Translations under genes and position numbers: made by a program
Source: a virus
Lineage: Duplodnaviria; Heunggongvirae; Uroviricota; Caudoviricetes
Virus record (IMG/VR): IMGVR_UViG_2541047165_000024
DNA: 9,704 bases
Strand: one strand, 5' to 3'
Shown: positions 3,042-9,704 of the stretch, one piece after another
How the letters are laid out: each line of letters opens with the position of its first letter
Position numbering within the stretch: the first letter of the stretch is position 1
Notes under the pieces: generated by a model
Told to the model about the DNA's origin: nothing
Database searches by the model: none
What the model saw: the letters and a program-made list of their open reading frames with translations, nothing else

Positions 3042-3518
3042 TTAAGTTCCTGTCTTGGTGATGTTCTGGCTTTTCCGTTTTGATTCTTGATTTTTCAGAT
3101 AGTTAGCTACCTTCATTTCCATTGCGGCAATGTAGGCACGAACGTCATGATCAACCCAACTAGGCTCCGTAGCATTTCCAGATAAGAGGAAAGCCACAAT
3201 TGCTCTTTTTTCATCAGAGGCGGCTTGATAAAGGCTGTTTATGTCTAAAAGTTCACTTTTTGTATCTGAAGTGGATGGGGTTGGTATGGGGTATTCGTTA
3301 AGCCCCCAATGCTCTGGACCAACCACATCAGAAAAGAAACGCCATAGTTCTGGAAGTTTGTCTTTACTTATCGAACCTTTCTTAATCCAGTCATGGATTG
3401 ATGGTGGTTGGACTTTGAAATGACGTGCGATTTCCGCCTTTGATTTGACGGCTCCTGATGCAATTTTTTTGTTAATGGCCTGCTCTATCGCTCGGCCTAA
3501 GTCTTTACCACTAAGCAT
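3042..3518 (-). CDS. racR: Prophage immunity repressor, HTH (XRE/CI-like) without a LexA-type peptidase domain; RacR-like
   Basis: 158-aa ORF with an N-terminal HTH region (…KSKAEIARHFKVQPPSIHDWIKKGSISKDKLPELW…) and an AGGAGA RBS. It is divergent from a Cro-like gene and flanked on both sides by operator-bearing promoters. Size and context match the RacR position of Rac-type prophages. The symbol is given as a family-level analogy only. Confidence 0.85.
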   Translation of the reverse strand: MLSGKDLGRAIEQAINKKIASGAVKSKAEIARHFKVQPPSIHDWIKKGSISKDKLPELWRFFSDVVGPEHWGLNEYPIPTPSTSDTKSELLDINSLYQAASDEKRAIVAFLLSGNATEPSWVDHDVRAYIAAMEMKVANYLKNQESKRKSQNITKTGT

Positions 3519-3544
3519 TGCTTAATAGTCTCCTATGCGCATCG

Positions 3545-3616
3545 CATTAGGCAATACCTACTCTCGAAGCGTTAGGCATAGCCTATTGACAGTTGCATTA
3601 GGCTAAGCCTAATATT
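3545..3616 (+). promoter_or_regulatory. Rightward pR-like promoter (-35 TTGACA 3586-3591, -10 TAATAT about 3610-3615) with three operator-like palindromes (OR)
   Basis: Operators read from the sequence: TTAGGCaatACCTAC (about 3547-3561), TTAGGCataGCCTAT (3572-3586, abutting the -35) and the near-perfect TTAGGCtaaGCCTAA (3598-3612, overlapping the -10). This is a classical tripartite operator over divergent promoters. Confidence 0.65.
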
Positions 3617-3642
3617 ATTGTGTGTTTTTTGGAGTTCATTCG

Positions 3643-3966
3643 ATGAAAAAAGATAACTATTCATTCAAACGAGCTTGTGCTGTTGTCGGTGGGCAATCAG
3701 CAATGGCTAGGCTTTTAGGTGTATCTCCTCCAAGCGTAAATCAATGGATCAAAGGTGTACGTCAGTTGCCTGCTGAGAGATGTCCTGCGATTGAACGAGC
3801 AACAAAAGGTGGTGTCCTGTGTGAAGAACTTCGTCCTGATGTTGATTGGACATACTTACGACGCTCGTCATGTTATTCGCAGAATATGTCGATGAAGCAA
3901 CCAAATGACGAAAACGATCATACCCGAAGCATCAAGAGGCAAATGATTCATGAAAATCAAACATGA
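3643..3966 (+). CDS. ydaS: Cro-like HTH regulator of the YdaS type
   Basis: ATG at 3643 with GGAG 8 nt upstream. The track's GTG at 3622 gives an unlikely extension. The HTH region (…ACAVVGGQSAMARLLGVSPPSVNQWIKGVRQLPAERCPAIE…) is typical of Cro/YdaS-like proteins encoded divergently from the repressor. Confidence 0.8.
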   Translation: MKKDNYSFKRACAVVGGQSAMARLLGVSPPSVNQWIKGVRQLPAERCPAIERATKGGVLCEELRPDVDWTYLRRSSCYSQNMSMKQPNDENDHTRSIKRQMIHENQT

Positions 3967-4375
3967 GCACATCCGCATGGCGATGAATGCCTGGGCATAT
4001 CCTGATGGTGAGAAAGTTCCTGCAGCTGAAATAGCCCGGACTTATTTCGAACTGGGGATGACGTTCCCGGAACTGTACGACGACAGCCATCCGGAAGCCC
4101 TGGCTCGTAATACCCAGAAAATTTTCCGTTGGCTGGATAAAGACACCCCTGATGCTGTTGAAAAAATGCAGGCTCTGTTACCGGCGATCGAAAAGGCAAT
4201 GCCGCCTCTGCTGGTGGCCCGTATGCGCAGTCACAGCTCTGAATATTACCGTGAGATCGTCGAACGGAGGGATCGGCTGGTGAAAGATGTGGATGATTTT
4301 GTCGCAGCGGCGATCGCCTGGGGCACCCTGACTAACAGTGGGGGTCAGCCTGGTAATGCTGTTGTCGTGCATTGA
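3950..4375 (+). CDS. ydaT: YdaT-like protein (prophage toxin-like, repressor-controlled)
   Basis: 141-aa ORF overlapping the end of the ydaS-like gene by 17 nt, so probably translationally coupled. The N-terminus MKIKHEHI… and the position directly after the cro-like gene match the YdaT family of Rac-like prophages. Assignment is from recall, not a search. Confidence 0.78.
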   Translation: MKIKHEHIRMAMNAWAYPDGEKVPAAEIARTYFELGMTFPELYDDSHPEALARNTQKIFRWLDKDTPDAVEKMQALLPAIEKAMPPLLVARMRSHSSEYYREIVERRDRLVKDVDDFVAAAIAWGTLTNSGGQPGNAVVVH

Positions 4376-4437
4376 CCAACAATATTCATGCCGGATTTCT
4401 TCCGGATGTTCGAGGGTAAAGTTCGGTATCAGATGAG

Positions 4438-5481
4438 GTGAGTATGGCTAATGCCTGGCTCAGATTGTGGCATGACATGCCAAATGATCCCAAATGGCGA
4501 ACCATTGCCAGGGTCTCAGGACAGCCAATCGCAACAGTGATGGCGGTGTATATCCACCTTCTGGTGAGTGCGTCACGAAATGTCACGAAATGTCACGGCG
4601 AGTCACTACGTGGTCACATTGATGTCACGACGGAAGATTTAGCAAGTGCGCTTGATGTGACGGAAGACGTGATTGATTCAATTTTGCATGCAATGCAGGG
4701 GCGAGTTCTGGATGGCGATCTTATTTCCGGATGGGAAAAACGCCAGGTGATGAAGGAGGATAACGGTAATGTTTCGCAAACCGCAAAATCCCCGGCAGAG
4801 CGCAAGAGAGCGCAGCGGGAGCGGGAAAGACTGCGGGAGCAGAACACTGATTGTCACGATGAGTCACGACGCGTCACGCATATGTCACGACAAGTCACGA
4901 CAGATACAGATACAGATAAAGAATTAAACCCCACACATAACGCGCGCATGCGCGAGAGTGCTCCAGCCAGTGAGTCGAATGGCGCGCCGTTGCAGACAGC
5001 AGAACCTGAATACCCGGATGGCCTGAGCGAACCGATCGGGAAATTTCCGATGACTGGTGTCTGGCGGCCGTCGCTGGATTTTCGACAGCGGGCTGCATTG
5101 TGGGGTATGGCTCTGCCTGAGCCTGAGTTTACACCTGCTGAGCTTGCCGCATTCCGGGATTACTGGATGGCGGAGGGGAAGGTTTTCACGCAGGTTCAGT
5201 GGGAGCAGAAATTTGCCCGTCACGTGCAGCACGTCAGGGCACAGGTAAAACCAGTCAGCAAGGGGGTAAGCCATGCAGCACCAGGTGGCACCGCATCACG
5301 GGCAGTTCAGGAAATTCGGGCAGCACGTGAACAGTGGGAACGTGAAAACGGATTTATCAGCAACGGAAACGGCCTGGAAGCTGTGGGAACTTATGGGGGA
5401 GGTGTATTCGAACCGCTGGACCCAGAAGAACGGGGCTGCGCCGTCGAAGCTCTGGATTGCTCAGATTGGCGCGATGACTGA
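4438..5481 (+). CDS. Replication initiation protein (lambda O-like functional analogue or replisome organiser) with embedded origin iterons
   Basis: 347-aa ORF; the start is GTG 4438 or ATG 4444 after GAGGTG. It lies immediately upstream of a lambda P-like gene. The coding sequence contains two clusters of GTCAC repeats at helical spacing, the hallmark of an ori inside an O-type gene. Confidence 0.8.
   Translation: MSMANAWLRLWHDMPNDPKWRTIARVSGQPIATVMAVYIHLLVSASRNVTKCHGESLRGHIDVTTEDLASALDVTEDVIDSILHAMQGRVLDGDLISGWEKRQVMKEDNGNVSQTAKSPAERKRAQRERERLREQNTDCHDESRRVTHMSRQVTTDTDTDKELNPTHNARMRESAPASESNGAPLQTAEPEYPDGLSEPIGKFPMTGVWRPSLDFRQRAALWGMALPEPEFTPAELAAFRDYWMAEGKVFTQVQWEQKFARHVQHVRAQVKPVSKGVSHAAPGGTASRAVQEIRAAREQWERENGFISNGNGLEAVGTYGGGVFEPLDPEERGCAVEALDCSDWRDD
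4572..4628. repeat. Iteron cluster 1: six GTCAC(G) repeats at 10-11 bp spacing (putative ori component)
   Basis: GTCAC occurs at about 4572, 4582, 4592, 4602, 4613 and 4624, read directly from the sequence. Confidence 0.75.
4853..4918. repeat. Iteron cluster 2: five GTCACGA repeats at 10-11 bp spacing, followed by (ACAGAT)x3 and an A/T-rich stretch (putative ori core)
   Basis: GTCACGA occurs at about 4853, 4863, 4873, 4884 and 4894. It is followed by cagatacagatacagataaagaattaaa. Confidence 0.75.
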
Positions 5482-5935
5482 ACAGCAAATCCGGCAGGTC
5501 TGCCGTCAGTGCATGGACCGCTGCCGGGCGGGTGAAACGTGGCCTCCGGACCTGGCTGAGTTTGTGGCGTTGATTTCGGAGAGCGGGGCAAATCCATTTG
5601 GCCTGACGGTGGATGCCGTGATGGAGGAGTACCGTCGCTGGAGGAATGAATCCTGGCGGTACGACGGGAGTGATAAATACCCGTGGCCACAGCCGGTGCT
5701 GTACCACATTTGCCTCGAGATGCGTGACAGAGGGATTGAGCGGCAGATGACGGAAGGTGAGTTAAAACGACTTGCAGAACGGCAACTGACGAAATGGGCA
5801 AAGCAAGTTGGTAACGGGATGAGTATTCCCCCGATCCGGAGACAACTCGCATCGCCGAAGTGCCCGCAAGGGCCAACGCCAATTGAATTACTGAAACAGG
5901 AATACGAGCGCCGGAAGGCGGCTGGTTTTGTTTGA
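5273..5935 (+). CDS. Lambda P-like replication protein (helicase loader)
   Basis: ATG at 5273 is preceded by a strong AAGGGGG SD. The C-terminal half aligns by eye with lambda P (ours: WPPDLAEFVALI…DKYPWPQPVLYHI…MTEGELKRLAERQL; lambda P: LPSPGQFVAWC…ESYPWKSNAHYWL…LTDAELRRKAADEL). It overlaps the 3' end of the O-like ORF by about 209 nt in another frame. Confidence 0.8.
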   Translation: MQHQVAPHHGQFRKFGQHVNSGNVKTDLSATETAWKLWELMGEVYSNRWTQKNGAAPSKLWIAQIGAMTEQQIRQVCRQCMDRCRAGETWPPDLAEFVALISESGANPFGLTVDAVMEEYRRWRNESWRYDGSDKYPWPQPVLYHICLEMRDRGIERQMTEGELKRLAERQLTKWAKQVGNGMSIPPIRRQLASPKCPQGPTPIELLKQEYERRKAAGFV

Positions 5936-5968: not shown

Positions 5969-6685
5969 ATGGAAACCGTATCTGACGCACTGAAAGCACT
6001 GAAAAGAGCCTCTTCACATGTGGTGGCAGCTCGCCTTGGAATTAGTCGTGAAGAGGCTGTCAACGAACTGTGGAAACTGAAACGCCGTGGAGAAGCGGAT
6101 AACAAGGGGGCGATATGGTGGCTGACTCAGGCTGGTGAAAGTGAACCGGTGTCACCGGTACCGAAAGTGACGGCGCAAATGCTGACAGAGGCGATTGAAC
6201 AACATGGCCCACAAACGGCGGATGAACTGGCATTGATGTTCGGAATTACCTCCCGCCGGGCGAATTCATCGCTGGCAATGGCAATCAGCAAAGGGTGTCT
6301 GATTCGCGTGAATCAGGATGGTAAATTTCGTTACTGCATACCGGGCGTTGATTTACCGGCAGAGCCGAAAGCAGCATCCGTAGCTGAAACGGAGGGTAAA
6401 GCCCTTCCTCAGCCAGCTGGTGTTGCGTTACCAGTCCAGGAAACGGCTGCACAGGAAGAAATTAAAACAGAAGCGGTGGAGGACATTGTGAAGTTGCAGC
6501 AATCGTTCACTGAAGCGAAAGCAGATGACCTGATTCTACCATCGCTGCATGTGGCTAACCGCGAGCTGCGCCGGGCGAAAAGTAATGTTCAGAAGTGGGA
6601 GCGAGTCTGTGCTGCGCTACGGGAACTGAACAAACACAGGGATATTCTCCGGGATATTACCGCCACCAGAGAGCAGCAGCGGTGA
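5969..6685 (+). CDS. Hypothetical protein with two winged-helix-like repeats
   Basis: ATG at 5969 with GGAGG 8 nt upstream; the track's TTG at 5951 is unlikely. Two internal segments resemble each other (…[23 protein letters not shown]… and …[31 protein letters not shown]…). No Walker motifs are present. Confidence 0.65.
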
Positions 6686-9333: not shown

Positions 9334-9434
9334 GGTAAAAACGGTTTGCGGTAAAGCGAGAGTTAAGTAGAATTGCTGCGGGTGCTTGAGGCTGTCTGCC
9401 TCGGGCATGCCACCGTAAGGTAGACAGAGAAAAG

Positions 9435-9505
9435 CCCCAGTTAACATTACGCGTCCTGCAAGACGCCTAACATTAATCTGAGGCCAATTTCATGCTAGAC
9501 ACATG
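9435..9505 (-). ncRNA. sok: Predicted sok-like antisense RNA of the hok locus
   Basis: This is inference. A candidate minus-strand promoter (-35 TTGCCT at plus 9530-9535, 17-bp spacer, weak -10 TAACCT at 9507-9512) would start a transcript near 9500. That transcript would be antisense to the mok SD (GAGG about 9480-9483) and start codon (9492), as in hok/sok loci. The 3' end and terminator were not identified. Confidence 0.3.
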
Positions 9506-9704
9506 TAGGTTAGCCTCTTACGCGCCGAAAGGCAAGGAGAAGCAGGCTATGAAGCAGCAAAAGGCGATGTTAATCGCCCTGATCGTCATCTGTATCACCG
9601 TCATAGTGACGGCACTGGTAACGAGGAAAGACCTCTGCGAGGTACGAATCCGAACCGGCCAGACGGAGGTCGCTGTCTTCACAGCTTACGAACCTGAGGA
9701 GTAA
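9492..9704 (+). CDS. mok: mok-like reading frame (in-frame N-terminal extension overlapping hok)
   Basis: ATG at 9492 with GAGG 8 nt upstream. It reads in frame through hok to the same stop, consistent with the mok/hok arrangement in which mok translation is coupled to hok expression. Confidence 0.65.
   Translation: MLDTCRLASYAPKGKEKQAMKQQKAMLIALIVICITVIVTALVTRKDLCEVRIRTGQTEVAVFTAYEPEE
9549..9704 (+). CDS. hok: Hok/Gef family type I toxin (HokD/RelF-like), 51 aa
   Basis: Translation MKQQKAMLIALIVICITVIVTALVTRKDLCEVRIRTGQTEVAVFTAYEPEE is unmistakably Hok/Gef family. ATG at 9549 with AAGGAGA 8 nt upstream. The stop TAA is the last codon of the window. Confidence 0.92.
   Translation: MKQQKAMLIALIVICITVIVTALVTRKDLCEVRIRTGQTEVAVFTAYEPEE

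Follow-up and report, generated by a model that had tools for sequence, protein, structure and literature searches.

Two GTCAC repeat arrays inside the initiator gene of an Escherichia coli O157:H7 prophage most likely form a two-part replication origin

The stretch of DNA analysed here, referred to below as the window, comprises 9,704 nucleotides of a Caudoviricetes virus (IMG/VR record IMGVR_UViG_2541047165_000024) and is 100% identical to a prophage of Escherichia coli O157:H7. It carries a replication initiator gene in which two arrays of the 5-mer GTCAC are embedded, the second of them followed by an A-rich tract and a palindrome. The features of this segment are the following:

4444..5481, + strand: replication initiator gene, 345 residues
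4572..4629, + strand: block 1 (distal array), six direct GTCAC(G) units, 10-11 bp apart
4657..4661, - strand: single inverted copy of the core (GTGAC on the + strand), 33 bp past the last block 1 unit
4853..4899, + strand: block 2 (proximal array), five direct GTCACG units, 10-11 bp apart, in the linker-coding segment
4900..4928, + strand: purine/A-rich hexamer tract, (ACAGAT)x3 then AAAGAATTAAA; candidate DNA unwinding element
4941..4954: G+C-rich palindrome CGCGCATGCGCG, directly 3' of the A-rich tract
5474..5935, + strand: lambda-P-like helicase loader gene (RefSeq 'replication protein P'; Pfam Phage_lambda_P, 1.6e-16; PHROG 109 'P-like helicase loader')

The loader gene lies immediately 3' of the initiator gene, as at lambda-type origins, and its start overlaps the end of the initiator gene by 8 nt. 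An earlier reading made from the letters alone (hereafter the sequence-only reading) had already called this gene P-like, in agreement with the database matches.

The GTCAC units of block 1 start at positions 4572, 4582, 4592, 4602, 4613 and 4624 (spacing of 10, 10, 10, 11 and 11 bp) and those of block 2 at 4853, 4863, 4873, 4884 and 4894 (10, 10, 11 and 10 bp). The extended form GTCACG is found in 9 of the 11 copies, and both blocks have the longer consensus rTGTCACGMnr in common. The sequence-only reading had described two separate clusters of six and five repeats at helical periodicity, about 280 bp apart. This description holds: the first copies of the two blocks are 281 bp apart, with a gap of 229 bp between the blocks. 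We searched 300 dinucleotide-preserving shuffles of the window for runs of any 5-mer at 10-11 bp spacing. The longest run was 2 in 288 shuffles and 3 in the other 12, against observed runs of 6 and 5. The number of GTCAC words in the whole window is unremarkable (22 versus 14.9 expected), so that the signal resides in clustering and period rather than in abundance. The other 34.6 kb of the prophage yielded no further array. Scanning positions 3400-5600 for promoters and terminators revealed no promoter-like site inside the initiator gene, the G+C-rich palindrome being the only structure detected. With a period of 10-11 bp, the units are spread over all three reading frames (offsets 2, 0, 1, 2, 1, 0 in block 1 and 1, 2, 0, 2, 0 in block 2). 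The two encoded peptide segments therefore share only VT, xH and xS dipeptides, and the in-frame, matching peptide repeats that had been proposed are not present.

The initiator is predicted to consist of an N-terminal DnaD-like winged-helix domain (residues 1 to ~100), a basic helix (117-134), a disordered linker (136-194) and a DnaT-like domain binding single-stranded DNA (~197-268). Its earlier description as O-like has to be abandoned, as it has no similarity to lambda O: a Pfam scan matched the DnaT single-stranded DNA-binding domain alone (residues 201-267, 4.5e-17), and neither Phage_rep_O nor RepA_N. The DnaT domain was confirmed by a PDB sequence search and by two fold searches, and it was the only domain detected by Foldseek against the PDB. 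PHROG gave weak matches to 'replisome organizer' and 'DnaD-like' families. The AlphaFold model is of low overall confidence, with a mean predicted local distance difference test score (pLDDT) of 60.8 and values of 80-90 for blocks of the N-domain. The predicted fold of the N-domain may resemble the N-terminal winged helix of DnaD. Helices 2-14, 16-25 and 29-48 are followed by a low-confidence loop at 48-62 (pLDDT <50 for residues 48-58), and helices 63-70 and 74-84 together with a hairpin form a winged-helix-like unit. Block 1 encodes residues 43-62, the low-confidence loop that separates helix 29-48 from helix 63-70. Block 2 and the tract lie in the segment coding for the predicted disordered residues 136-194, a location in the linker that corresponds to that of the origin in DnaD-like and replisome-organizer initiators.

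Selection on the repeats was evaluated at synonymous sites in 20 GTCAC-group genes from many genera, by comparing the codons whose third base lies in a core with 76 other conserved degenerate columns. Use of a single codon amounted to 98.5% in the cores versus 54.8% in the other columns (Mann-Whitney p=5e-7). Val47, for instance, is encoded by GTC in 20 of 20 genes, Gly57 by GGT in 20 of 20 and His58 by CAC in 19 of 19. Near-fixation outside the cores was limited to the first GAT of the tract and to the ACG codons providing the G of GTCACG. The inverted copy of the core is also maintained, as Val72 is GTG in all 16 sequences; it is invariant in the alignment and kept at the same place across the GTCAC group.

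A search with the N-terminal 193 residues of the protein returned 1418 clusters bearing the NCBI name 'phage replisome organizer'. A species-level scan with one genome per species gave 58 loci, 53 of them full-length genes; these sequences are related and do not constitute independent observations. The loci span Enterobacteria, Pseudomonas, Bordetella, Stenotrophomonas, sphingomonads, Acidobacteria and one Gemmataceae metagenome-assembled genome (Planctomycete). Two periodic clusters of one same 5-mer are present in about 43 of the 53 full-length genes, at about nt 125-190 and nt 340-460. The comparison with relatives that the sequence-only reading had called for thus indicates that both clusters are generally kept. 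Block 2 comprises 3-7 units, and it is the only block in L036 (0+7 units), L038 and L047 (0+4). In L027, L028 and L040 at most 2 degenerate units remain, and none is visible in L045 and L046. A near full-length match to the initiator was found in 658 of 5426 complete E. coli genomes. Among phages, tblastn detected 24 records, none of which is a studied model, and Megablast against phage genomes matched the C-terminal half and the P gene only, the N-terminal half being matched by no phage at the DNA level.

The repeated word differs between groups of relatives. It is GTCACG in the clade of the window, GTAACG in L021, L023, L033 and L037, GAACGC in a large second clade and GTGACG in L055, and within each gene the words of block 1 and block 2 are identical. 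The sister genes L021 and L022 carry GTAAC (4+4 units) and GTCAC (6+6), respectively. The word tracks the tree of the N-domain, calculated with the block 1 loop masked, with several switches. An alignment of 16 proteins showed that the N-domain is conserved and the C-terminal domains are mosaic, the mosaicism beginning right after the TDKD repeat. As at iteron origins in general, the repeats are thus conserved as DNA and co-vary with the DNA-binding domain of the initiator. The helical period, the placement in all three frames, the frozen synonymous sites and the concerted switches of the word in segments encoding unrelated parts of the protein argue that both arrays are read by one sequence-specific binder evolving together with the N-domain, and are hard to explain otherwise. 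The initiator itself is the obvious candidate for this binder.

The arrays vary in length by whole units. Compared with most relatives, the window protein has 7-residue insertions in both blocks, and the insertion in block 1 amounts to exactly 21 bp of DNA, corresponding to two units and seven codons. Among 80 close IMG/VR relatives, the layout is 6+5 in 68, 6+4 in 10 and 6+6 in 2. Helical phasing between the blocks across the family gave Rayleigh p values of 0.003-0.5 that vary with the assumed period, and such phasing is partly built in, as the arrays grow by whole units. A different arrangement of cores is seen in L022 (Erwinia phyllosphaerae), where at nt 160-181 and 412-451, in both blocks, they lie partly head to tail with 5-bp spacing (GTCACGTCACGTCAC); its sister L021 has GTAAC at the same places. 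L044 and L056, from Serratia and Pantoea, are devoid of both arrays and of the A-rich tract. At nt 320-370 their genes carry clustered TACTACGTA-like palindromic words instead, and the C-terminal part that comes next is different and longer.

Block 2 directly abuts the A/T-rich tract, as iterons do at lambda-type origins, and this arrangement is kept in relatives. The (ACAGAT)x3 repeat that had been pointed out after the second block lies at 4900-4917 and was confirmed by Tandem Repeats Finder (4900-4922, 3.8 copies). The accompanying A/T-rich stretch exists but is modest, with 68% A+T over 4900-4939. No 40-mer of the initiator gene is less stable, yet within the whole window it ranks only 12th in instability (z=2.25). 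Irrespective of the iteron word, almost all relatives have a tract starting with (C/T)AGATA(A/C)AGAT directly after block 2, and its GAT and AAA codons are nearly fixed. No such tract is found 3' of block 1 in any relative. The A[CA]AGAT hexamers resemble an in-frame microsatellite, their number ranging from 0 to 9 among the close relatives, whose initiators are otherwise 89-100% identical (IMG/VR loci L060-L139). The YdaU protein of Escherichia phage Rac-SA53 (L140, 1016-2086) has the tract, the palindrome and the DnaT-like C-domain in common with window positions 4900-5481, and an unrelated N-domain. Identity of the DNA to this ydaU is about 90% and starts exactly at the tract, which places the recombination joint of the initiator modules at the putative unwinding element. 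The repeats upstream of the joint in ydaU differ from those of the window, and no periodic array comparable to the window's was found in that gene. Since YdaU has both tract and palindrome despite its other N-domain, these two elements travel with the C-terminal module; the palindrome, which belongs to this module, may be part of the origin.

Taken together, these data suggest that the prophage origin is most likely a two-part version of an origin located inside the initiator gene. In the reading that we consider probable, both blocks are arrays bound by the initiator, and the origin core consists of block 2 and the tract, with block 1 as an auxiliary array. The two GTCAC clusters would be iterons for the protein's own N-terminal winged-helix domain, placed where the protein would tolerate almost any sequence, namely a surface loop for block 1 and the inter-domain linker for block 2. 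Initiator molecules would bind one per helical turn on a single face of the DNA, the tract beside them would melt, and the C-terminal DnaT-like domain together with the P-like loader would bring the host DnaB. The core is assigned to block 2 and the tract, perhaps with the G+C-rich palindrome, because only block 2 abuts an easily melted tract and because it sits in the linker-coding segment, as do the origins of lambda/Stx O, pSK41 Rep and SPP1 gene 38. Block 1 appears to be an auxiliary array and not a second origin, since no melting tract follows it and some relatives lack it; the genes with block 2 only also indicate that it is auxiliary rather than indispensable. From its position some 230 bp upstream, block 1 would most likely act together with block 2 by way of protein-protein contacts and looping of the DNA, and would either aid the loading of the origin or limit initiator supply and firing.

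The most serious alternative, which we regard as distinctly less probable, is that block 1 is a negative control element acting by autoregulation of early-promoter transcription, by titration of the initiator or by handcuffing with block 2. Block 1 has the same word as block 2 and yet no melting tract. It begins 128 nt into the coding sequence, so that a bound array would face transcription, and L036 and L047 show that it is dispensable in nature. The extra iteron clusters of RK2 oriV, P1 incA and F incC provide precedents. However, it is not obvious why a lytic or induced phage should need to control its copy number. A positive role would account just as well for the conservation of block 1 in about 43 of 53 genes, and the sequence points neither way on negative control. 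We find it rather unlikely that the origin is truly bipartite, with a distal array that is needed in cis and loops onto the proximal one to open the tract, and with distal iterons that also code for a loop of the domain that reads them, immediately ahead of its helix-turn-helix. The proposal of a bipartite origin by the sequence-only reading nevertheless stays live, because both clusters behave as DNA-selected iteron arrays and only the second is followed by an A-rich tract; the relatives with block 2 only count against an indispensable block 1. If the distal iterons do have this second function of encoding the loop, a change of the iteron word would automatically alter the loop, and the evolution of the DNA site and of protein specificity would be coupled within a single segment.

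It is very improbable that the prophage has two independent or duplicated origins, with each block acting as an origin core. The arrays are of similar size and identical word, and SPP1 has two separate initiator-binding regions, oriL and oriR (PMC5737612). But the conserved A-rich tract follows block 2 only, the DNA 3' of block 1 has 50-57% A+T and encodes the helix-turn-helix, and the flanking sequences of the two blocks are unrelated. The two-block layout is moreover ancient and family-wide, which speaks against a recent local duplication, so that the duplicated origin also raised earlier can be set aside. We give equally little credit to the idea that the repeats are a by-product of protein-level conservation, or sites for another protein such as a phage repressor or a host factor. 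Conservation is indeed high for the block 1 peptide SASRNVT..RGHxDVT, and the (E/T)RG motif is retained even in relatives without block 1 repeats. Synonymous positions are frozen inside the cores only, however, the units occupy all three frames, and the word switches jointly in two places whose protein segments are unrelated. GTCAC is absent from the repressor/cro intergenic region, and the initiator gene contains no DnaA box at up to 1 mismatch, the count of such boxes in the window being that expected by chance. A host-specific factor is also disfavoured, because the word stays with the N-domain in hosts ranging from Escherichia to Acidobacteria.

Two-cluster origins are known from several replicons. 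In RK2 oriV, P1 incC/incA, F incB/incC and P4 ori/crr, a second iteron cluster lies away from the one at the melting region; it is regulatory, through handcuffing, in the RK2, P1 and F plasmids and required in cis in P4. The prophage resembles them in having one cluster beside the putative melting region and a second cluster of the same sites at a distance. It differs in that both clusters lie in coding sequence, whereas those of RK2, P1, F and P4 are intergenic, flanking the rep gene, or kilobases apart; because of this coding location, the copy number of the prophage arrays changes in 21-bp steps. In phage-inducible chromosomal islands, two sets of iterons flank an AT-rich region (PMC6092414). 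Origins of this type, including those of Staphylococcus aureus pathogenicity islands, likewise have two sets of short iterons, but in the prophage the two sets are separated by DNA of 30-57% A+T that codes for a folded domain rather than by an AT-rich region, and the A-rich tract is found beyond them, 3' of block 2. None of these two-cluster origins matches the geometry of the prophage.

The lambda origin has a palindrome after its A/T-rich tract. The order of iterons, A/T-rich tract and palindrome in the linker-coding middle of the initiator gene is thus common to lambda, the Shiga toxin (Stx) phages and the prophage, as are the downstream P-like loader, the varying number of iterons among relatives and the recombination joints at the origin. 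In lambda and Stx phages, 4 or 6 iterons and an AT-rich region lie in the middle of gene O (PMC7466680). The prophage initiator, in contrast, is unrelated to O, and its units are direct, 10-11 bp apart, with the asymmetric core GTCACG, whereas those of lambda are ~19 bp long, have internal inverted symmetry and are bound by dimers. A second array, ~230 bp upstream in the region coding for the DNA-binding domain, distinguishes the prophage from the single block of lambda. The RepA_N initiator of pSK41 also has its origin in the linker-coding middle of its gene, with one central set of four boxes and no second array described (PMC5703833). The window initiator differs further in its lack of a RepA_N match, its Gram-negative prophage setting, its DnaT-like C-domain and its P-like loader. 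SPP1 G38P is a phage replisome organizer, the name that NCBI also gives to relatives of the window protein. Its origin, made of AB boxes and a DNA unwinding element, is embedded in its own gene and a second binding region, oriR, is separate (PMC5737612). This second site is however far off in the SPP1 genome and not in the same gene, and the only protein-level link found here is the weak PHROG matches. An iteron origin inside an initiator gene is of a kind already known; what sets the prophage apart is the different initiator family, the short asymmetric units spaced by one helical turn and the second array in the region coding for the DNA-binding domain. In open-access papers we found no experimental or computational description of the origin of this initiator family, although an older account in a subscription journal is possible, and nothing specific on the GTCACG word or on two-cluster phage origins.

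The prophage is located between potC and potB, and its right arm carries nleL, espN and espK. The genes of the window follow the order integrase, excisionase, truncated exonuclease, RacR-type repressor, YdaS/Cro-like, YdaT/CII-like, initiator, lambda-P-like loader, DUF1627 and small early genes, among which are:

1422-1859, - strand: 3'-5' exonuclease (Rv2179c-like) gene, a RefSeq pseudogene with its N-terminus missing
3042-3518, - strand: RacR-type repressor gene
3622-3966: YdaS/Cro-like gene
3950-4375: YdaT/CII-like gene

Further right in the prophage, the RusA, DUF6645 and portal genes are truncated or frameshifted too, and the prophage is for these reasons probably defective. A perfect tandem duplication of the 9-mer GCACTGAAA (two copies) lies at 5987-6004, near the start of the DUF1627 gene. 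The only Rfam match, far from the repeat arrays, is a sok antitoxin RNA (RF01794, 114 bits; 9380-9554, + strand) overlapping the start of a hokD-type toxin gene (9492-9704), so that the early region of the prophage contains a hok/sok type I toxin-antitoxin locus. A considerable fraction of the database entries for the initiator protein is marked 'partial' and stops within the gene on short contigs. Assemblies thus seem to break often at the initiator gene, probably because several prophages of one genome have parts of the replication module in common (3-6 places per O157 genome).

The initiator family described here is common in E. coli and is also found in prophages of many Proteobacteria and beyond. 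The comparative data provide a concrete, testable map of a putative origin for O157:H7 prophages carrying type III effector genes. They illustrate how a gene can harbour cis-acting sites in the parts that code for loops and linkers, with arrays that grow or shrink in 21-bp steps keeping the reading frame. The natural specificity series GTCAC, GTAAC, GAACG and GTGAC, switched in concert at two places, could serve studies of the co-evolution of initiators with their sites and of the emergence of incompatibility groups.
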